Positions 2,184 through 64,000 of a stretch of 64,000 nucleotides of DNA are shown piece after piece. The stretch lies in the sequence record NC_054929.1; one strand, 5' to 3'. The stretch is from Escherichia phage PE37. A program made the position numbers and the translations under genes. Each line of letters begins with the position of its first letter. Positions within the stretch are counted from its first letter, which is position 1. The notes beneath the pieces are model-generated. The model ran no database searches and had not been told where the DNA came from. It was given only the letters and a program-made list of their open reading frames with translations.

Positions 2184-2527
2184 ATAAAGCCAAATATTCG
2201 TTTCCAGAGGCACTATTAATTCTTGCCGTATCAGCATTTACAGCTCTTGCGGGTAGTCTTATTGGATTATTAATTGACTGTTTTATTTTAAACATCGACG
2301 GCACAGTAATTATAACAGAGGTTTGGAGTGAACTTCGTTATACTATAGCGATTTCATTATTTTCATTCTTTGGTACCATGTTATATTTTCATTATGATAA
2401 TTTTAAAATAAATTGGCAAAGAAAAAAAGATTACAAAATACAATTAAAAGAATATAATAGCTACATGTCTTATATTGAAAAAGAATCAATGGAAGAGTTT
2501 GTGAGTGATTGTAGGAAAATTAAATGA
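2165..2527 (+). CDS. membrane protein, e.x paralog family
   Basis: ATG; 2-3 TM segments; C-terminal ...DCRKIK. Confidence 0.6.
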   Translation: MQKPKLNKAKYSFPEALLILAVSAFTALAGSLIGLLIDCFILNIDGTVIITEVWSELRYTIAISLFSFFGTMLYFHYDNFKINWQRKKDYKIQLKEYNSYMSYIEKESMEEFVSDCRKIK

Positions 2528-3012
2528 TTTTAAAAACTCGCTGGTATGATTTAGATGACGGGGATGATGGCATTTCAGTTAATAGAGTTGACTGGAATGG
2601 CTGTTCCGAAGATATGAAAAATTTGCTGATTAGGGAGTTTAGAATGGGATATCAACCAGTTAAGCCATCTACTGCAACAGATGATAAATTCGTGTGTATT
2701 CATAATGGTCGCGCTAAATTAACGAACGCTGATTGGTTCACAGATAAAATTATGATTCTGTGGTATATTATTAGTCTTCCTGTGACATCATTCGTATTTT
2801 ACTTTTTTATAAAAAATCCAATGGACAGAATAGGAGATTGGATTCTTTTAACCATACTTGTTAATATTTTTACTGCAGCAATATTATCTGGGATATGGTA
2901 CACGTTCATTGAAATGCCATGGCGTTTACGCAGACAACAAAAGATTTTTGATGAAAAGAAATATACCCAAAATTTAAATAGCTTTATCACTGAATGCAGG
3001 AAATTAAAATGA
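2524..3012 (+). CDS. membrane protein, e.x paralog family (e.2 position)
   Basis: ATGA overlap with upstream gene; TM segments; C-terminal ...ECRKLK. Confidence 0.6.
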   Translation: MILKTRWYDLDDGDDGISVNRVDWNGCSEDMKNLLIREFRMGYQPVKPSTATDDKFVCIHNGRAKLTNADWFTDKIMILWYIISLPVTSFVFYFFIKNPMDRIGDWILLTILVNIFTAAILSGIWYTFIEMPWRLRRQQKIFDEKKYTQNLNSFITECRKLK

Positions 3013-3449: not shown

Positions 3450-4020
<571 letters not shown>

Positions 4021-4039
4021 AGTTACTTGGAGGGATAAA

Positions 4040-4456
4040 ATGACTCGTATTAATTTGACTTTAGTATCTGAACTTGCTGATCAACATTTAATCGCAGAAT
4101 ACCGTGAATTGCCACGTGTTTTTGGTATAGTTCGTAAACATGTGGCAAATGGTAAACGGGTTAAAGATTTTAAAATATCTTCCGAGTTTATTTTAGGTTC
4201 TGGTCATGTTACGTTCTTTTACGATAAGTTAGAATTTTTGCGAAAGCGTCAATCAGACATTATAACGGAATGCTTAAAACGCGGGTTTAGTATAAAAGAT
4301 ACTGAAGTTCCTGACATCGGCGATATTCCAGCAGAATGGAAAAATGATTATAATCCATGCAAATCAGCTATTAAATTGAGTCAACAACGACTCAATGAAA
4401 AAATTTTAATGAAGCCACACTGGTACAAGTATTACGGCAAAAATATTTACATTTAA
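4040..4456 (+). CDS. denV: endonuclease V, pyrimidine-dimer DNA glycosylase
   Basis: 138 aa, [17 protein letters not shown]..., matches T4 endo V. Confidence 0.95.
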
Positions 4457-7066: not shown

Positions 7067-7105
7067 CTGTTTACTTTTCCTCTTGACTGTGGTATAATTT
7101 TTCTA
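7060..7105 (+). promoter_or_regulatory. early promoter
   Basis: GTTTAC 7069-7074, 18 bp, TATAAT 7093-7098. Confidence 0.7.
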
Positions 7106-7125
7106 TCAGTTAAGAGGAGAATAAC

Positions 7126-7587
7126 ATGACTATCAATACAGAAGTTTTTATCCGTCGAAATAAGCTTCGTCGTCACTTTGAGTCGGAGTTTCGTCAAATT
7201 AACAATGAGATTCGTGAGGCATCAAAAGCAGCAGGGGTCTCATCGTTTCATCTAAAATATTCTCAGCATCTTCTTGATCGTGCAATTCAACGGGAGATTG
7301 ATGAGACATATGTTTTTGAATTATTCCACAAAATAAAAGACCATGTTTTAGAAGTTAATGAATTCCTGAGTATGCCTCCGCGTCCTGACATTGACGAGGA
7401 TTTTATTGATGGGGTTGAATATCGTCCTGGGCGTTTGGAAATTACAGATGGAAATCTTTGGCTTGGATTTACAGTTTGTAAGCCTAATGAGAAGTTCAAA
7501 AACCCGTCACTTCAATGCAGGATGGCAATTATCAACAGTCGTCGTTTACCAGGAAAGGCTTCTAAAGCAGTAATTAAAACTCAATGA
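7126..7587 (+). CDS. regB: endoribonuclease RegB
   Basis: 153 aa, MTINTEVFIRRNKLRRHFESEFRQ..., matches T4 RegB; SD GAGGAG. Confidence 0.9.
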   Translation: MTINTEVFIRRNKLRRHFESEFRQINNEIREASKAAGVSSFHLKYSQHLLDRAIQREIDETYVFELFHKIKDHVLEVNEFLSMPPRPDIDEDFIDGVEYRPGRLEITDGNLWLGFTVCKPNEKFKNPSLQCRMAIINSRRLPGKASKAVIKTQ

Positions 7588-11228: not shown

Positions 11229-11252
11229 AGTCTCCTTCGGGAGACTTTTTTC
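11229..11252 (+). terminator. rho-independent terminator (UUCG loop)
   Basis: AGTCTCCTTCGGGAGACT followed by TTTTTT. Confidence 0.8.
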
Positions 11253-11300
11253 ATTTTACCGGTTTACTTTCCATTTGAGCTGTGATACTATACAACTATC
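11252..11300 (+). promoter_or_regulatory. early promoter
   Basis: GTTTAC 11262-11267, 18 bp, TACTAT. Confidence 0.65.
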
Positions 11301-11319
11301 GGATAAAGAGGAGAACATC

Positions 11320-11508
11320 ATGAAAATTGAAGCACTTAATCAAGAAGGAAATATCTACGTCATTATTAATGGTGATTTTTTCGTCGACATGGATGAAGTT
11401 ACTAGTGAAGAACTTGTAGAACTTCTTAAGAAACGTTATAATATGTGTGATGAAGTTGCAACTCACATGGCGTGTGCAATATTCTCTCTTTCATATGTGG
11501 TGGAATAA
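11320..11508 (+). CDS. hypothetical protein
   Basis: ATG+SD GAGGAG. Confidence 0.55.
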
Positions 11509-12071: not shown

Positions 12072-12112
12072 TGGTTTACAAGTTGGCAAGGTTATGGTAT
12101 AGTAATCTTGTC
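12065..12112 (+). promoter_or_regulatory. early promoter
   Basis: GTTTAC 12074-12079, 18 bp, TATAGT. Confidence 0.65.
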
Positions 12113-14967: not shown

Positions 14968-14969
14968 TA

Positions 14970-14995
14970 GGGAGCCTTCGGGCTCCCTTTTTATT
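14970..14995 (+). terminator. rho-independent terminator (UUCG loop)
   Basis: GGGAGCCTTCGGGCTCCC followed by TTTTTATTT. Confidence 0.85.
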
Positions 14996-14999
14996 TCAA

Positions 15000-15055
15000 A
15001 AATTTTTCACAAAGTTGTTTACAAGCATAAAGCTTTATGGTACTATACAACTATC
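15000..15055 (+). promoter_or_regulatory. early promoter
   Basis: GTTTAC 15017-15022, 18 bp, TACTAT 15041-15046. Confidence 0.7.
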
Positions 15056-15080
15056 AACTGATACGGATTTGGAGAATAAA

Positions 15081-16049
15081 ATGAAAACTGTAACTATCAA
15101 TAAGGGTATCTACTTCGGTAAAGAAATCTCTGGAACTTTTGAGCTCTTAGGCGAATGGTTCCCAGATAATGCTCCGGTAGATGCACAAGGAGATGGTAAA
15201 GTTTTTGTTGAAATTGACGGTAAGCGTCGCGGTGTTTGGGTTTACAAATCAGACATTTCATATGATGGTGTAAAAGTTGAAGAAGTTAAAGAATCGTATG
15301 AAGATATGAAAACCCGCATTAATAAAAGATTTAATGTTATGGGAATGATGACGAATGGTATTATTAATGGAAATATTCGTTCATTAATTATCTCTGGCGC
15401 AGCAGGTATTGGTAAAACGTATTCTTTAGATAAAGCTTTAAATAAAGCAAATGATATTGGATACATTGAATATAAAAGCATTAATGGTAAAATCTCTGGT
15501 ATTGGTCTTTATGAGCAGCTTTGGAATAATCGTGAAGAGAATTCTGTCCTTTTGATTGATGATGTGGATGTTTTCTCTGATATGGACATTCTTAATCTTC
15601 TGAAAGCTGCTCTGGACACTGGAGAGACCCGTAAAGTCTGCTGGAGCACCGCATCTTCTTACTTAGAAGAAAAAGGCATTGAGCGTGAGTTTGAATTTAA
15701 AGGAACGATTGTTTTTATCACAAACGTTGACATTGACCGCGAATTAGACCGTGGTACTAAACTTGCTCCACATTTACAAGCATTAGTGTCCCGCTCAGTT
15801 TATTTGGATTTGGGTGTTCACACTAATGAAGAAATTATGGTCAGGGTTGAAGATGTTATTCTTTCAACTGACATGATGCAAAAGCGCGGTCTTTCTGATG
15901 AAGAAACTTATAAAGCATTATCATGGATGAAAGTCAATGTTAATCGTTTACGCAATGTTTCACTGCGTACTGCTCTTTATCTTGCTGACTTTATTATGAC
16001 CGACAAAAACGGTTGGGAAGAAATTGCTACGGTTACTCTTCTGAAATAA
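15081..16049 (+). CDS. AAA+/P-loop ATPase
   Basis: Walker A GAAGIGKT, Walker B VLLIDDVD; start 15081 (track N-terminal extension runs through terminator and promoter). Confidence 0.7.
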   Translation: MKTVTINKGIYFGKEISGTFELLGEWFPDNAPVDAQGDGKVFVEIDGKRRGVWVYKSDISYDGVKVEEVKESYEDMKTRINKRFNVMGMMTNGIINGNIRSLIISGAAGIGKTYSLDKALNKANDIGYIEYKSINGKISGIGLYEQLWNNREENSVLLIDDVDVFSDMDILNLLKAALDTGETRKVCWSTASSYLEEKGIEREFEFKGTIVFITNVDIDRELDRGTKLAPHLQALVSRSVYLDLGVHTNEEIMVRVEDVILSTDMMQKRGLSDEETYKALSWMKVNVNRLRNVSLRTALYLADFIMTDKNGWEEIATVTLLK

Positions 16050-16151: not shown

Positions 16152-16454
16152 ATGTTATACTCAAAAGCTCGTGAAATTTATGAAACTAAAATTAAAGACG
16201 CGGTTCATCAGTTCGCAACGACAATGCGTTGGACAAATGACTGGGAATACTCCAAGAATCATAAGAAGCCCTTGGTGACAAGAAAGGCTCATATGTTAGT
16301 GTTAATAGACCGTGAGCAGATTAAAGCCCGAGAAGCCCTCCAGAATCATAAAAAGGCTGCCTTTGAATGGTTTATGGATAACACTGCTCCTGAGACTAAG
16401 AAAGCAGTGAGCGCTTGGTTCAGTGGAAAAAATTGTGAAAGAAGTTTCTTTTAG
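16152..16454 (+). CDS. hypothetical protein
   Basis: ATG after GGAGG; 100 aa. Confidence 0.55.
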   Translation: MLYSKAREIYETKIKDAVHQFATTMRWTNDWEYSKNHKKPLVTRKAHMLVLIDREQIKAREALQNHKKAAFEWFMDNTAPETKKAVSAWFSGKNCERSFF

Positions 16455-16492
16455 TTGTTTACAAGACTGTTCCTCTGTGGTACTATACAACT
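16445..16492 (+). promoter_or_regulatory. early promoter
   Basis: GTTTAC 16456-16461, 18 bp, TACTAT. Confidence 0.7.
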
Positions 16493-16514
16493 ATCAACTA
16501 CGGAGGAACAGAAA

Positions 16515-17042
16515 ATGAACGCTAAAGATATTTTCAACTTGGTAAACTACAATGATGGTAAATTTAAATCTGAAGCACAAAGTAAGTTCTTTAATGACAT
16601 CTCAATCGGAGGTGAAATCACTGTTGATGGAGGACAAATTTACAAATCCCGTTGGAATTGGATCGTTATTATTGATGAGATTGGTATTGTAGAAATTTAC
16701 AAAAATACGAATAAAAATCGTACATTACACTGGTCTCGTGATACTAACGAACAGTACAAAAAGGATAAAGCATCTAAGTTATCTCGTGTAACTCAAGAAG
16801 ATATTGAGTTCATCAAGAAAGATATTTTGATGTATGATAACTTAATTGCTGAAGAGCAAGCTGTTATTGATAAATTTGATGAGATTAAAGCTTCTCATAA
16901 AATTCCTGATTTTATGAAAGAATCAGTAAATGAACGATACACTCTCATTTCAGAGCGTATTGAAACTTACAAAAAGCAAAGAGCTGAACGCCAGAATACT
17001 CTTCGGAAGTTTGAAGAACGGTTAAAGACGGTACTTGCATAA
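16515..17042 (+). CDS. hypothetical protein
   Basis: ATG+SD GGAGG; 175 aa. Confidence 0.6.
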   Translation: MNAKDIFNLVNYNDGKFKSEAQSKFFNDISIGGEITVDGGQIYKSRWNWIVIIDEIGIVEIYKNTNKNRTLHWSRDTNEQYKKDKASKLSRVTQEDIEFIKKDILMYDNLIAEEQAVIDKFDEIKASHKIPDFMKESVNERYTLISERIETYKKQRAERQNTLRKFEERLKTVLA

Positions 17043-30642: not shown

Positions 30643-30759
30643 TGATGAGACTCTTTAAAGAGTCTCATGATAAAGCTAAAGCAGAAGGAACTATAACATA
30701 TAAGCGCATAAAATTTAAAAGTTCTAACGAGCCTCTGTATGGCGTATTATGTGGATAGG
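30643..30759 (+). CDS. small hypothetical ORF (38 aa)
   Basis: ATG+SD GAGGAAA; contains 20-bp palindrome; weak. Confidence 0.3.
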
Positions 30760-30778
30760 AGCTTCGGCTCCTATATTG
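30756..30778 (+). terminator. terminator-like UUCG hairpin
   Basis: AGGAGCTTCGGCTCCT; short U tract. Confidence 0.55.
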
Positions 30779-30805
30779 CTTTATAAATTTTTGGTAAAAT
30801 AAACC
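30770..30805 (+). promoter_or_regulatory. candidate MotA-dependent middle promoter
   Basis: MotA-box-like TTGCTTTA 30776-30783, about 11 bp, TAAAAT. Confidence 0.4.
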
Positions 30806-30824: not shown

Positions 30825-32027
30825 ATGAAAGTATGTATTTTTATGGCTCGAGGTCTTGAAGGTTGTGGTGTAACAAAATTCTCACTCGAGCAACGTGATT
30901 GGTTTATTAAAAATGGTCATGAAGTGACTTTGGTTTATGCTAAAGATAAATCATTTACTCGTAACTGTGCACATGATTATAAATCATTTTCAATTCCGGT
31001 TTTATTGGCAAAAGAATACGATAAAACACTTAAGCTGGTAAATGATTGTGATATTCTAATTATCAATTCAGTTCCTGCTACTTCAGTTGAAGAAGACACT
31101 ATTAATAACTATAAAAAAATTATTGATAACATTAAACCTTCTGTTCGTGTTGTAGTTTATCAACATGACCATTCTTCTCTTTCTTTGCGCCGAAATTTGG
31201 GATTAGAAGAAACTATTCGTCGAGCTGATGTTATTTTTAGCCATTCTGATAATGGTGATTTTAATAAAGTTCTGATGAAAGAGTGGTATCCAGAAACTGT
31301 TTCTCTGTTTGATGATATTGAAGAAGCACCGACCGTATATAACTTTCAGCCTCCTATGGATATTGCGAAGGTTCGGTCAACTTACTGGAAAGATGTTTCT
31401 GAAATTAACATGAATATCAACCGTTGGATTGGTCGTACGACTACATGGAAAGGTTTTTATCAGATGTTTGATTTTCATGAAAAACATCTTAAACCTGCAG
31501 GACTAAGTACTGTTATGGAAGGTCTGGAACGTTCTCCAGCGTTCATTCCTATTAAAGAAAAAGGAATTCCATACGAGTATTATCGTCTTCATCAAGTAGA
31601 CCAAATTAAAATTGCTCCTAATTTGCCAACGCAAATTCTTGACCGTTATGTAAATAGCGAAATGCTTGAACGCATGAGTAAATCCGGATTTGGTTATCAA
31701 TTGAGTAAGTTGGATAAAAAATATCTACAACGTTCTTTAGAATATACTCATCTCGAGCTTGGTGCATGTGGAACAATTCCGGTATTTTGGAAATCTACTG
31801 GCGAAAATTTAAAATTCCGTGTTGATAATACTCCTTTGACCTCGCATGATAGCGGTATCATTTGGTTTGATGAAAATGACATGGAATCAACATTTGAACG
31901 TATTAAAGAACTGTCATCTGACCGAGCTCTTTATGACCGTGAGCGAGAAAAAGCATATGAATTTTTGTATCAGCATCAAGATTCAAGCTTCTGCTTTAAA
32001 GAACAGTTTGACATTATTACAAAATAA
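30825..32027 (+). CDS. agt: DNA alpha-glucosyltransferase
   Basis: 400 aa, ...CIFMARGLEGCGVTKFSLEQRDWFIKNGHEV..., matches T4 alpha-gt. Confidence 0.93.
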   Translation: MKVCIFMARGLEGCGVTKFSLEQRDWFIKNGHEVTLVYAKDKSFTRNCAHDYKSFSIPVLLAKEYDKTLKLVNDCDILIINSVPATSVEEDTINNYKKIIDNIKPSVRVVVYQHDHSSLSLRRNLGLEETIRRADVIFSHSDNGDFNKVLMKEWYPETVSLFDDIEEAPTVYNFQPPMDIAKVRSTYWKDVSEINMNINRWIGRTTTWKGFYQMFDFHEKHLKPAGLSTVMEGLERSPAFIPIKEKGIPYEYYRLHQVDQIKIAPNLPTQILDRYVNSEMLERMSKSGFGYQLSKLDKKYLQRSLEYTHLELGACGTIPVFWKSTGENLKFRVDNTPLTSHDSGIIWFDENDMESTFERIKELSSDRALYDREREKAYEFLYQHQDSSFCFKEQFDIITK

Positions 32028-32045
32028 AGGGCTTCGGCCCTTTAG
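32027..32045 (+). terminator. rho-independent terminator (UUCG loop)
   Basis: GGGCTTCGGCCC followed by TTT. Confidence 0.75.
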
Positions 32046-32066
32046 CTTTATACGGAGTTTGATATA

Positions 32067-41689: not shown

Positions 41690-41713
41690 TAGGGACCTCC
41701 AGGTCCCTTTTTC
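41690..41713 (+). terminator. rho-independent terminator
   Basis: AGGGACCTCCAGGTCCCT followed by TTTTT. Confidence 0.85.
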
Positions 41714-41779
41714 ATACAAGTAATATAAATCTATACTTATGAAAAACAGATGATTCTGGACATTTAGAATTCCCTAAAA

Positions 41780-41830
41780 AATTTTCACAAAACTGTTTAC
41801 AAGAATGTTCTTCCATGGTACTATACAACT
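41780..41830 (+). promoter_or_regulatory. early promoter
   Basis: GTTTAC 41795-41800, 18 bp, TACTAT; conserved leader follows. Confidence 0.7.
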
Positions 41831-41861
41831 ATCAACTACTGATACGGATTTGGATAATAAA

Positions 41862-42098
41862 ATGAAAATTGTTATGGGTTGCTTAGCAGTTTGTTTAGTT
41901 GCATTAGCAGCAGTTCCATTTGTTAGTGTTGAAAATGATACTCAACCTGTGATTGAATCTAGCACTGTTATTCACACTAATGGTAAAATATCAGTTAAAA
42001 TTGATGATAATCTTCATGTGAATACAAATGGATCTTTAGGTGTGCAAATGGGTAATACCTGCATAAGCACTACTGGAGTAATTACTACTTGCATTTGA
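41862..42098 (+). CDS. secreted small protein
   Basis: ATG after leader SD; signal peptide. Confidence 0.55.
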   Translation: MKIVMGCLAVCLVALAAVPFVSVENDTQPVIESSTVIHTNGKISVKIDDNLHVNTNGSLGVQMGNTCISTTGVITTCI

Positions 42099-51059: not shown

Positions 51060-51110
51060 TTATCATAAATTTGTTTACTTTCTCAGCTTGTTATGGTATT
51101 ATAAAATAAA
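51060..51110 (+). promoter_or_regulatory. early promoter
   Basis: GTTTAC 51073-51078, 18 bp, TATTAT. Confidence 0.65.
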
Positions 51111-51127
51111 TTGCTGAGGATGATATA

Positions 51128-52467
<1,340 letters not shown>

Positions 52468-53325: not shown

Positions 53326-53332
53326 TAATTCA

Positions 53333-53361
53333 AGGACTCCCGAAGGAGTCCTTTTTTTCAT
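53333..53361 (+). terminator. rho-independent terminator
   Basis: AGGACTCCCGAAGGAGTCCT followed by TTTTTTT. Confidence 0.85.
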
Positions 53362-53405
53362 TTAAATGGTTTACTTTCCAAAATGAGTATGGTATAATAA
53401 AATTA
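53360..53405 (+). promoter_or_regulatory. early promoter
   Basis: GTTTAC 53370-53375, 18 bp, TATAAT 53394-53399. Confidence 0.7.
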
Positions 53406-53424
53406 TCTTATAGAGGAGAGCACT

Positions 53425-53631
53425 ATGTTAAATCGTTGGATTAAACCAAATGAAGATTTAGATATTATCATTTCACGACATGTAATGAAGAAATATGAAC
53501 TGCAGCCATGGTCTACAGAAGTTGTTGTGCATTCATTTATGATGTACGCAGATGGTTCTGTCGAATTTAATGCAGAGATTCGATATGATTATGGTGAAAA
53601 GCAAGTCGAATTCAAGAGAGGCTTTTTGTAA
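53425..53631 (+). CDS. hypothetical protein
   Basis: ATG+SD GAGGAG. Confidence 0.55.
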   Translation: MLNRWIKPNEDLDIIISRHVMKKYELQPWSTEVVVHSFMMYADGSVEFNAEIRYDYGEKQVEFKRGFL

Positions 53632-60439: not shown

Positions 60440-60485
60440 AAAGTTGTTTACTTCCTCGGTTAGTTGTGGTATTATAACAGCATAG
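60435..60485 (+). promoter_or_regulatory. early promoter
   Basis: GTTTAC 60446-60451, 18 bp, TATTAT. Confidence 0.65.
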
Positions 60486-60502
60486 CTACTGAGGATAATA
60501 AA

Positions 60503-61015
60503 ATGAAAATTTATCGTGTTGAATCATCGTTTAGCGCATTAAATGATGATAGTGGTATAATGAAAATTAGGCAAGAGTTATGTGTTCAATCAACTCCTTA
60601 TCGTGGATTTGATTCTATGAAAACTCGAACTTGGCTAAAATTTTGCGGTATTAATTCATCGTCATTTCATCATCATAGCGATAATTATGAAAGTCATGAA
60701 AGTATTCCTATTCCACACGATGATAAGTTATTAGTTGAAAATGCTAATGATGCTATTAAAACTAAATGGAATAAAGATTATTCACGAATTGAAAATTATA
60801 TTCCATTATGGTTTATTGCATTATATCATTTTGCTTTCGCTAGTGAATATGATATAATGAGATGGTTTACTCGAGAAGAGCGTGAAGACTTAAAAGATCG
60901 TGGAATGTACATTGCGATTTATGAAGTGCCAGATGATCAAGTTATCATTGGTGGGCATCAAGTAATGTTTCGCAAATCGCATGCCGAATTAAAAGGCTTT
61001 ATTACCTTAGATTAA
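60503..61015 (+). CDS. hypothetical protein (motB.2 position)
   Basis: ATG+SD GAGGA. Confidence 0.6.
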   Translation: MKIYRVESSFSALNDDSGIMKIRQELCVQSTPYRGFDSMKTRTWLKFCGINSSSFHHHSDNYESHESIPIPHDDKLLVENANDAIKTKWNKDYSRIENYIPLWFIALYHFAFASEYDIMRWFTREEREDLKDRGMYIAIYEVPDDQVIIGGHQVMFRKSHAELKGFITLD

Positions 61016-62087: not shown

Positions 62088-62099
62088 AGTTTAAAATTT

Positions 62100-62140
62100 T
62101 TTCATAAAACTATATACATCAGTAGTTGATTATGGTACTA
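62100..62140 (+). promoter_or_regulatory. early promoter (variant -35) with conserved leader
   Basis: -10 TACTAT 62126-62131; leader shared with 15041, 41819 and window start. Confidence 0.5.
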
Positions 62141-62184
62141 TATCAATATCAACTACTGATACAGAAAACAACTTGGAGAATAAA

Positions 62185-62454
62185 ATGGAAAACTTAATTA
62201 TCATCGAGCAATCTTTCAACGATTATGGTATGGCTTACGGTTATCGTGCGATAATGGAAGATTCTCGTGGATGTGTTATCGATATTGCTGAATGTAAAGA
62301 TTTACTACAGCTTTTGAAGATTGTTCGTAAAAATTGGGATTGTGAAAATATTAAAGTTCGAGTTGTTACAGAAGAAGAAACTGTTTTTCATGATGTAAAA
62401 TTCGCTAAAGGTGCTGCTACTCTTCTGAAACGTATCGCTCCAATGTTTAATTAA
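62185..62454 (+). CDS. hypothetical protein
   Basis: ATG six nt after GGAG (track start 62173 is TTG). Confidence 0.55.
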   Translation: MENLIIIEQSFNDYGMAYGYRAIMEDSRGCVIDIAECKDLLQLLKIVRKNWDCENIKVRVVTEEETVFHDVKFAKGAATLLKRIAPMFN

Positions 62455-63669: not shown

Positions 63670-63930
63670 ATGAAATATATTAATCGTTCTATTGCAGCAT
63701 TAGTATTAGCAGTATCTTTAGTAGGATGTACTGATGCTGATAATGCAACTAAAATTTTATCATCAAGTGGTTTTACGAATATTGAAATCACTGGATATAA
63801 CTGGTTCGGTTGCTCTGAAAATGATTTCCAACATACTGGATTTCGTGCTATTGGACCTACTGGGCAGAAAGTAGAAGGAACAGTATGTTCTGGGTTGTTC
63901 TTTAAGGATTCAACTATTCGTTTTAAATAA
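63670..63930 (+). CDS. lipoprotein
   Basis: signal peptide with lipobox LVGC. Confidence 0.55.
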   Translation: MKYINRSIAALVLAVSLVGCTDADNATKILSSSGFTNIEITGYNWFGCSENDFQHTGFRAIGPTGQKVEGTVCSGLFFKDSTIRFK

Positions 63931-63950
63931 AAGGCCTTCGGGCCTTTAGC
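63930..63950 (+). terminator. rho-independent terminator (UUCG loop)
   Basis: AAGGCCTTCGGGCCTT followed by T-rich tract. Confidence 0.75.
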
Positions 63951-64000
63951 TTTATGATTGCCGGAGTATAATATTCCCGAAACCAAACGAGGATAAGTAA

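Follow-up and report, generated by a model that had tools for sequence, protein, structure and literature searches.

The repeated cassettes in the early region of Escherichia phage PE37 are probably autonomous early expression units, related to each other as paralogous promoters, that have occasionally acted as crossover points for gene modules. (We put the probability of this reading at roughly 85%.) We analyzed a stretch of 64,000 nucleotides (NC_054929.1), which we call the window, and focused on the cassette at 14970-15083. Elements of this kind are already known: they are T4 early promoters whose leaders are sensitive to RegB, in some cases with an intrinsic terminator in front, and as a group they have been described as the PeSLs of T4 and PST. 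The element is primarily the known early promoter plus a leader with a RegB site and a Shine-Dalgarno sequence (SD), and its conservation is largely functional. PE37 is one more Tequatrovirus with textbook strong early promoters and RegB-sensitive leaders, and it confirms the published idea that these elements link modules. What we add is quantitative: the share of indels that involve a cassette and the excess of indel ends per junction.

A family of related cassettes

The window is the early region of a Tequatrovirus. It maps onto the reverse complement of T4 (AF158101) from about 70.6 to about 5.3 kb, and all of its genes are on the + strand. The region 14970-15083 lies between nrdC.11 and nrdC.10 as their intergenic spacer, and several hundred Tequatrovirus genomes match it with 96-97% identity.

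An earlier note on this DNA had proposed that a near-identical leader recurs before unrelated genes. Both parts of this held up. The 21-mer TGGTACTATACAACTATCAAC is present without mismatches at 15038, 16478, and 41816, and a fourth copy, at 62133, differs from it at three positions (the number of matches expected by chance in the window is 0.00), and a comparison of the five downstream proteins found no similarity among them. The 49-nt leader that the note quoted is, with one mismatch, the form at 41816, but it is not the form of the other three copies. The copy at 15038 lacks its 'TAC'; the copy at 16478 has about 27 nt in common after TGG and then diverges to ACGGAGGAACAG; and the copy at 62133 has a different 3' half, which it shares with the e.8 leader. 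Repeat searches also found 94% identity between 15057-15091 and 41838-41872 and between 1-34 and 62159-62192, as well as a weaker copy of the family at 11243-11309. The window does open inside another copy, as had been claimed: positions 1-29 correspond to the tail of the e.8 copy (T4 70649-70621), with the end of the e.8 leader and its ATG.

In each copy, a leader of 20-36 nt comes after a T4 early promoter (UP, GTTTACA, 17 nt, TGn, TACTAT). The parts of the cassette between nrdC.11 and nrdC.10 are:

14969-14993, + strand: predicted intrinsic terminator after nrdC.11 (AGGGAGCCTTCGGGCTCCCT, with an 8-bp stem and a UUCG loop, then TTTTT)
14989-15046, + strand: predicted T4-type early promoter of nrdC.10, found by pattern (PWM score 39.0; minus-strand maximum 3.1)
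15047-15083, + strand: initially transcribed region and 5' leader of nrdC.10 (+1 near 15053, predicted from spacing only)

The hairpin after nrdC.11 matches a terminator-like scan, folds at -18.4 kcal/mol as RNA (z=-4.5), and carries a terminator annotation in the records of NR1, G4500, and Ge15. In the promoter, a UP-like A/T-rich stretch (TTTTTATTTCAAAAATTTTTCACAAAGTT, 14989-15016; similar stretches are present at the other copies) precedes the -35 GTTTACA (15017-15023), a 17-nt spacer with TGn at 15038-15040, and the -10 TACTAT (15041-15046). The leader ends with GGAGAATAAAA at 15071-15081, which contains the SD and a RegB/S1 site, and the ATG is at 15081-15083. The other members of the family in the window are:

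1-29, + strand: tail of the e.8 copy (leader 3' half ATACAGAAAACAACTTGGAGAATGAAATG; e.8 ATG at 27-29)
11229-11322, + strand: weaker member before mobD.5 (UUCG hairpin at 11229-11246, -35 at 11263-11268, TGATACTATACAACTATCGG, SD, ATG at 11320)
16445-16517, + strand: second copy, between nrdC.9 and nrdC.8 (-35 TTTACA at 16458-16463, 21-mer at 16478-16498, SD GGAGG, ATG at 16515)
41691-41864, + strand: third copy, after gene 43 (hairpin with a UCCA loop at 41691-41708, UP, -35 at 41796-41801, 21-mer at 41816-41836)
62093-62187, + strand: fourth copy, between motB and an 89-aa ORF (-35-like TATACA at 62113-62118, -10 TACTAT at 62136-62141)

In the second copy, the stop codon of nrdC.9 (16452-16454) lies just 5' of the -35, within the UP-like region. 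The third copy has GGATAATAAAA at 41852-41862 and leads into a 78-aa ORF (ATG at 41862) that is absent from T4. The fourth copy has GGAGAATAAAA at 62175-62185 and an ATG at 62185.

What sets the family apart from other early promoters is the -10 hexamer TACTAT together with the next 20 nt. In those 20 nt, pairwise identity is 73% within the family and 35% among other early promoters. When the cassette (89 nt) was used as a BLAST query, it matched 4,298 places in 545 records, nearly all of them from Tequatrovirus, with 8-9 per genome. In T4, copies of the family precede e.8, nrdC.10, nrdC.8, imm.1, and the cef region; contigs from IMG/VR add two further contexts. The family's block was kept at orthologous sites in all of the Tequatrovirus genomes that we examined. 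Furthermore, when orthologous copies from the window and T4 are compared, the differences that are specific to each copy have been retained. This indicates that the copies are old and stable paralogs and that homogenization is slow. (We considered recent homogenization within genomes as a general rule, and rejected it because T4 and the window have these copy-specific differences in common.) There are mosaic patches between copies: the spacer of the post-43 cassette in HP3 is identical to the spacer of HP3's own e.8 copy, and three leader variants were found at a single locus. A search against Rfam gave no match across the whole window at the gathering threshold, and none around the cassettes at E<=1.

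The cassettes resemble classical early promoters

We searched the + strand of the window with a T4-specific pattern (GTTTAC(A/T), a 17-nt spacer, usually with TGG, and TAYWAT). This gave 18 sites, all of them intergenic and all with an SD and an ATG 18-37 nt further on. A PWM was built from these sites; 17 of the 18 score at least 30 bits, and the best score on the minus strand is 3.1. The PWM also yields an additional intergenic site at 294, for 19 promoters altogether. (A generic sigma-70 scan of the window was uninformative, with 47 sites versus 44 expected.)

T4 early promoters are built from a UP element, a -35, TGn, and a -10, with GTTTAC at -36 to -31 (reviewed by Hinton 2010, PMC2988021). 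In the sequence of the cassette, all four of these elements for recognition by RNA polymerase are present with the correct spacing, and an early gene lies downstream. Also, GenBank entry Z48569, in which the -35 and -10 of the early promoter of T4 motA are annotated, shows 80% identity over 76 nt and includes the exact 21-mer. The architecture of the nrdC.10 promoter is that of the annotated motA promoter, which has a similar hairpin upstream and a leader that is related to the cassette's. Judging from these sequences, the shared-leader copies are a subfamily of paralogous early promoters that includes the classical motA promoter. They have the same build (UP, -35 GTTTAC, TGn, -10) and do not differ from it in kind; they are paralogs that sit before other genes. 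We predict that the cassettes are active as promoters and, where they have the hairpin, as terminators.

Predicted RegB/S1 sites in the leaders

The target of RegB and S1 in T4 early mRNAs is an 11-nt site, GGAGAAUAAAA, with the general form GGAGRAYARAA (Durand et al. 2006, PMC1702504). At 15071 and 62175, the leader sequence (GGAGAATAAAA) agrees with this consensus at 11 of 11 positions. The leaders at 17 and 41852 (the latter with GGAU) each have one mismatch, and the match at 16503, which departs from the A-rich part of the consensus, is poor. All of the copies have GGAG or GGAT 10-11 nt 5' of the ATG. Across the window, seven of the seven RegB matches at an SD position sit 3' of early promoters, including regB's own. 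The site is predicted to be mostly accessible in RNA that starts at the promoter: the probability of being unpaired is 0.69 for the copy at 15018 (nrdC.10, where the SD is likewise mostly unpaired at 0.69) and 0.78 for the copy at 62113. As in known RegB/S1 sites of T4 mRNAs, the same 11 nt (GGAGAAUAAAA) overlap the SD of an early gene and are predicted to be single-stranded. Since the end of the leader matches the RegB/S1 consensus, the common ...TTGGAGAATAAAATG before unrelated genes is both a repeat and a functional signal of a known kind. We predict that RegB cleaves these leaders at the matching sites.

Terminator hairpins are not a constant part of the cassette

The earlier note had described UUCG-hairpin terminators as repeatedly preceding early promoters. 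This is true at 11229 and 14969, but of 10 GC-rich hairpins with a UUCG loop on the + strand, these two (11229-11246 and 14969-14988) are the only ones with an early -35 within 45 nt; the other eight lack one. There is one additional case of a hairpin followed by a promoter, with a CGAA loop (53332-53353). Among the shared-leader copies, only the one at 15038 has a UUCG hairpin directly 5' of it. The hairpin before the copy at 41816 has a UCCA loop and is 88 nt upstream, and a hairpin scan found no terminator hairpin upstream of the copies at 16478 and 62133.

Indel ends at the cassettes

We aligned the whole window to T4, T2, T6, G4500, HEMP5, HP3, and BCH953P4, and we also compared ZN18 and Ge15 at the nrdC.11|nrdC.10 site. 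Indel ends were found at three of the four shared-leader copies (relative to T2, T4, T6, and the four other relatives). Cassette copies do coincide with synteny breakpoints between related phages, contrary to the outcome that would have spoken against the earlier note's proposal.

The cassette between nrdC.11 and nrdC.10 is a hotspot: it is changed in T2, G4500, BCH953P4, Ge15, and ZN18. In Ge15, homology ends at 15057 (...ACTATCAA) and restarts at 15071 (GGAGAATAAAATG), and between these positions is an insert with a new leader, a 66-aa ORF, and a second promoter. (We considered the 58-aa ORF at 359-535 of the window as the cargo of the Ge15 insert, as both start with ATGACTACTTT, and rejected it: the proteins are not similar and the leaders alone are alike.) T2 and G4500 carry an inserted 161-aa ORF, which brings its own -10 and hairpin and lies between direct repeats of 14988-15022, a segment that includes the T-run, the UP, and the -35; that is, the 5' half of the cassette is duplicated. 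In G4500 and ZN18, extra ORFs are joined just 3' of ...ACTATCAA, and ZN18 has lost the segment from the 3' arm of the hairpin to the -35.

The cassette after gene 43 is followed by three different arrangements. In T4, T6, and BCH953P4, it leads directly to imm.1; in the window, G4500, HEMP5, and HP3, it leads to the 78-aa ORF; and in T2, it leads to other ORFs. The T2 cassette is chimeric, with an upstream half of the post-43 type and a spacer and leader of the nrdC.8 type.

T6 has a deletion of 3,074 bp (3993|7068), with the crossover within TGTTTACTTT, which is common to the -35 regions of the promoters at 3986 and 7070. The product is a hybrid promoter before regB. Among 518 records, a deletion of this type, from promoter to promoter, was found only in T6. 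(The search returned three T6 records and one shortened T4 record, in which the arrangement is different.)

There are similar arrangements in IMG/VR. One genome has a cassette of the nrdC.8 type in unrelated flanks, with 98.5% identity over 67 nt, and another has an 87-aa ORF between two cassettes. The T6 deletion, the T2 and G4500 module, and the chimeric T2 cassette are true crossovers within cassette homology, presumably made by a recombination pathway. The PeSL model would lead one to expect events such as those described here.

The event after motB is a frameshifting deletion by microhomology inside the 89-aa ORF, with no exchange of a module. No compared genome has an indel end at the nrdC.9|nrdC.8 cassette. 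Three cassette-associated deletions have microhomology of 4-8 nt just 3' of the ATG (ATGAAAAT, ACTCGTAA, and AAAA), so homology between cassettes is not needed to explain those three. An SD/ATG region that lacks a promoter also gave a junction, with a 22-nt overlap (2527|2991). And an excision of nrdC.10 and nrdC.9 between the copies that are 1,440 bp apart, which would give a junction of nrdC.11, cassette, and nrdC.8, is missing from all 592 records searched.

How often do indels end at cassettes?

The window has 131 gene junctions. We compared the proportion with indel ends between the promoter junctions and the others:

Five genomes, 18 cassettes: 7 of 18 promoter junctions and 36 of 113 others (OR 1.36, one-sided p=0.37)
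Seven genomes, 18 cassettes: 9 of 18 and 39 of 113 (OR 1.9, one-sided p=0.16)
Seven genomes, 19 cassettes (site 294 added): 10 of 19 and 38 of 112 (OR 2.2, one-sided p=0.10)
Seven genomes, 19 cassettes, without events that involve homing endonucleases or introns: 10 of 19 and 29 of 112 (OR 3.2, one-sided p=0.02)

The excess per junction at cassettes is modest (two- to three-fold), and it depends on leaving out the homing-endonuclease events. Among 41 distinct indels that do not involve endonucleases, six have both ends in a cassette, eight have one end in a cassette, and 27 have none. In other words, across these 64 kb and seven relatives, cassettes join in about a third of such indels. Together with the two- to three-fold excess, this makes the cassettes one contributor to the plasticity of the region and not its main driver. 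As most indels in the region end at ordinary gene boundaries, the recombination reading is weakly supported as a general statement. The earlier proposal that the cassettes are sites of module exchange stands for individual chimeric junctions, but the enrichment is modest and 27 of the 41 indels do not touch a cassette.

A model for the cassettes, and alternatives to it

We propose that each cassette would work as follows. Where there is a GC-rich UUCG hairpin with a T-run, it would terminate or attenuate transcription that arrives from upstream. The host's sigma-70 RNA polymerase would then start at a very strong early promoter (an A/T-rich UP, GTTTACA, 17 nt, TGn, and TACTAT). The leader of 20-36 nt would supply a GGAG Shine-Dalgarno, and its GGAGAATAAAA form would be a target for the phage endoribonuclease RegB, together with ribosomal protein S1. 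Because GGAGAATAAAA would be both the SD and the RegB target, expression would be turned on at once and off soon after. The similarity among copies would reflect common descent, selection on the promoter, the start region, and the RegB/SD site, and occasional patchy exchange. As direct repeats of 60-100 bp in a highly recombinogenic phage, the cassettes have sometimes been crossover points at which small modules were inserted, deleted, or swapped. This last step is the published PeSL mechanism, and it accounts for a minority of the indels in the region.

Alternatively, the similarity might be purely functional, and indels might coincide with cassettes only because viable indels end between genes, so that the cassettes have no causal role. 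This would account for the gathering of indel ends at gene junctions in general (38 of the 112 junctions without promoters are affected), for the lack of an excess in the five-genome test, and for the several events by short microhomology at the ATG. The 22-nt overlap at 2527|2991 arose without a promoter, the predicted excision of nrdC.10-nrdC.9 is absent, and each conserved block has a known function. Nevertheless, we consider this explanation unlikely. In T6, T2, G4500, and Ge15, there are chimeric cassettes with the crossover inside the cassette homology. It also does not account for the modules between duplicated halves of a cassette, the 98.5%-identical cassette in unrelated flanks, the patchy exchange among distant copies, or the two- to three-fold excess per junction.

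Another potential explanation concerns the block after the -10 (ACAACTATCAACTAC...). It might be a signal in RNA or DNA that coregulates a subset of immediate-early genes (motA, e.8, nrdC.10, nrdC.8, the imm.1 region, and the cef region), beyond the strength of the promoter and RegB. The high identity of this block within the family (73%, versus 35%), its retention at orthologous sites, and its presence in 545 records would fit with such a signal. But the block has no match in Rfam, it is unstructured in the copies at 15018 and 41796 (z=+0.4 and +0.9), and in this form it is essentially limited to one genus, which is consistent with shared ancestry. We know of no factor that acts on it, and we think that a role of this kind is improbable.

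Finally, it is very improbable that the cassettes are dedicated mobile elements with a site-specific recombinase or nuclease that recognizes the hairpin or the 21-mer: the 2010 PeSL paper (PMC2839356) speculated about a protein that recognizes the stem-loop, and in some copies the conserved block has sharp limits, but the crossovers are scattered over the -35, the spacer, the +1 region, and the SD/ATG, half of the family lacks the hairpin, no recombinase is associated with the copies, and the copies are stable between T4 and the window.

Comparison to related elements

Our preferred reading, that the cassettes are autonomous early expression units and occasional crossover points, can be compared to other known systems. 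The morons of lambdoid phages are single genes with their own promoter and terminator. The cassettes likewise combine a single gene with its own promoter and terminator. Morons are not known to move by way of homology between their regulatory sequences, whereas in the cassettes the regulatory repeat has at times been where the crossover occurred.

PeSLs are another such system. By its published definition, a PeSL of T4 or PST is an AT-rich region, TTTACW-N17-TAYWAT, a stem-loop, and then an SD and ATG. The cassettes at 15018, 16458, and 41796 have TTTACA-17-TACTAT, and the one at 62113 has TATACA-17-TACTAT. By sequence and predicted folding, the cassettes in the window also have the AT-rich region, an adjacent or overlapping stem-loop, and the SD and start codon. 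The published crossovers in PeSL mini-circles lay between the -10 and the SD/ATG (Arbiol et al. 2010, PMC2839356; Comeau et al. 2014, PMC4122927). The resemblance extends to the intergenic location beside variable small ORFs, to crossovers between the -10 and the SD/ATG or in the AT-rich part, and to modules that lie between two cassettes, as in the relatives of the window. There are also differences from PeSLs. A GC-rich hairpin is directly upstream of just three of the 19 promoters, and a hairpin spans the -10 in 12 of 18; the breakpoint excess per junction in this region is modest; and the subfamily with the shared leader and the exact RegB/S1 site receives little emphasis in the available parts of PMC2839356 and PMC4122927.

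Studies of how short repeats recombine in T4 could make good use of the clean chimeric junctions of T6, T2, G4500, and Ge15 as test cases.

Predicted hairpins that enclose the promoter

We also examined the predicted folding of the cassettes. In 12 of the 18 cassettes, the stretch between the -35 and the ATG has a much more stable predicted fold than its shuffled controls do (mean z=-2.6). For ATG-53..ATG+2, the mean z is -2.0 in the cassettes and -0.19 at the 113 other gene starts, and z is below -2 in 56% of the cassette windows versus 5% of the other starts (p=0.01). The stem mostly encloses the -10 hexamer, and the 3' arm is often over the SD.

Among the shared-leader copies, those at 16458 and 62113 have hairpins that span the -10. 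In the nrdC.8 cassette, the spacer is complementary to the SD and forms a 15-bp hairpin (-24.2 kcal/mol, z=-3.6; z=-7.0 in another run); this hairpin has no support from covariation, as the variants merely shorten the base of the stem. The fourth copy has a perfect 13-bp inverted repeat (62118-62130 and 62148-62160) around the -10, with a fold of -21.4 kcal/mol (z=-5.5). The folding predictions showed no promoter-spanning hairpin in the cassettes at 15018 and 41796, where the block after the -10 is unstructured (z=+0.4 and +0.9).

When the 3' arm covers the SD, the predicted probability that the SD is unpaired drops in read-through RNA. Between promoter-initiated and read-through RNA, it falls from 0.84 to 0.00 for nrdC.8 and from 0.89 to 0.02 for regB. 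RNA structure is known to block RegB, and control by placing a promoter within a hairpin is known at the late promoters of e, soc, 49, and I-TevI (PMC3014915). Stem-loops that overlap the -10 were noted in the RB49 PeSL paper, where they are interpreted as terminators (Arbiol et al. 2010, PMC2839356).

A tentative idea, which may well be wrong, is that most of the early promoters sit in a hairpin that would silence read-through RNA, with the spacer between the -35 and -10 as the 5' arm and the start of the transcript as the 3' arm. Examples with the 3' arm at the transcript start are regB, nrdC.8, and the promoters at 3986, 51074, 53370, and 60447, and this arm often includes the SD/RegB site. 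Similarly, in the sequestered initiation regions of T4 e, soc, 49, and I-TevI (PMC3014915), the 5' arm is upstream of the transcript start and the 3' arm is on the SD, as in nrdC.8, regB, and several other cassettes. Those are late promoters, whereas the cassette promoters are early and the effect is predicted only. If the idea is correct, then read-through RNA would be translationally silent and shielded from RegB, and only RNA that starts locally would be translated and cleaved. Every small early gene would then rely on its own promoter, and these hairpins would be the early counterpart of the four known late cases.

Deletion junctions in T6 and other relatives

A segment of 3,074 bp that includes denV, an internal-protein gene, and vs.8 to vs.3 is absent from T6 (window positions 3993 and 7068 flank the deletion junction). 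In the T6 record, the junction is near 60.96-61.02 kb (sequence pieces L039 and L038), and the crossover joins two early promoters within their -35 regions. The outcome of the deletion is a hybrid promoter before regB. Of 518 records, only those of T6 have this junction.

Another site of replacement or deletion, in T4, T6, G4500, and HP3, has an early-promoter-like sequence at the junction, which our initial pattern scan for early promoters did not pick up:

294-358: TGTACA-17-TATTAT, scoring 17.6 with a weight matrix built from the window's early promoters; leader ...CTTATCAAAACAAATACAGAAACGGAGAAATAAATG; before a 58-aa ORF (359-535)

Also, a 162-aa ORF (2524-3012) is missing from HEMP5, BCH953P4, and T2. 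The junction (flanked by 2527 and 2991) has an overlap of about 22 nt, located in a pair of SD/ATG regions that resemble each other (GTAGGAAAATTAAATGA and GCAGGAAATTAAAATGA). Therefore, translation-start regions without a promoter also act as junction homology.

Genes next to the cassettes

In the spacer between nrdC.11 and nrdC.10, T2 (L041 14578-15063) and G4500 (L027 1595-2080) have a 161-aa ORF inserted at window position 15022. The T2 record annotates it as an RNA polymerase ADP-ribosylase. Going by this annotation, the insertion would be a cassette-flanked module with a putative extra Alt/Mod-like gene.

Two small ORFs are directly 3' of cassettes from the family with a shared leader:

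41862-42098: 78-aa ORF
62185-62454: 89-aa ORF

Both are missing or degraded in T4, and all that is left of the 89-aa ORF in T4, T6, G4500, HP3, and BCH953P4 is an 11-codon remnant. Neither ORF has a match in Pfam; the 78-aa product is probably a membrane or secreted protein.

Hairpins around promoters

Most early promoters of the window sit within an inverted repeat whose arms flank the -10 hexamer:

3986-4040
7070-7126 (regB promoter)
16458-16515
51074-51128
53370-53425
60447-60503
additional early promoters at 12075, 48147, 61526, and 62113

Structure is far stronger at early-promoter cassettes than at other gene starts (mean fold-energy z of -2.0 versus -0.19 relative to shuffled controls), with z < -2 for 12 of the 18 cassettes. 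In six early promoters, the SD/RegB site is the 3' arm of the repeat, so we predict that the SD would be masked in read-through RNA (begun at upstream promoters) but accessible in RNA that starts at the local promoter.

At regB, the SD (7116-7126) is a RegB/S1 site with one mismatch (GGAGAATAACA), and in read-through RNA, none of it is predicted to remain unpaired. The site is in line with the idea of RegB cutting its own mRNA.

The post-motB promoter has a perfect 13-bp inverted repeat on both sides of its -10 (ATCAGTAGTTGAT at 62118-62130 and ATCAACTACTGAT at 62148-62160; -21.4 kcal/mol, z = -5.5). This repeat is kept in T4, G4500, HP3, HEMP5, and BCH953P4. The SD is outside it.

Three UUCG hairpins are followed by (T/A)GCTTTAT, which looks like a T4 middle-promoter MotA box, and not by an early promoter:

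30755-30784
32025-32054
63930-63957

From its sequence, this is a predicted terminator and middle-promoter arrangement, similar to the "PmSL" of phage nt-1.
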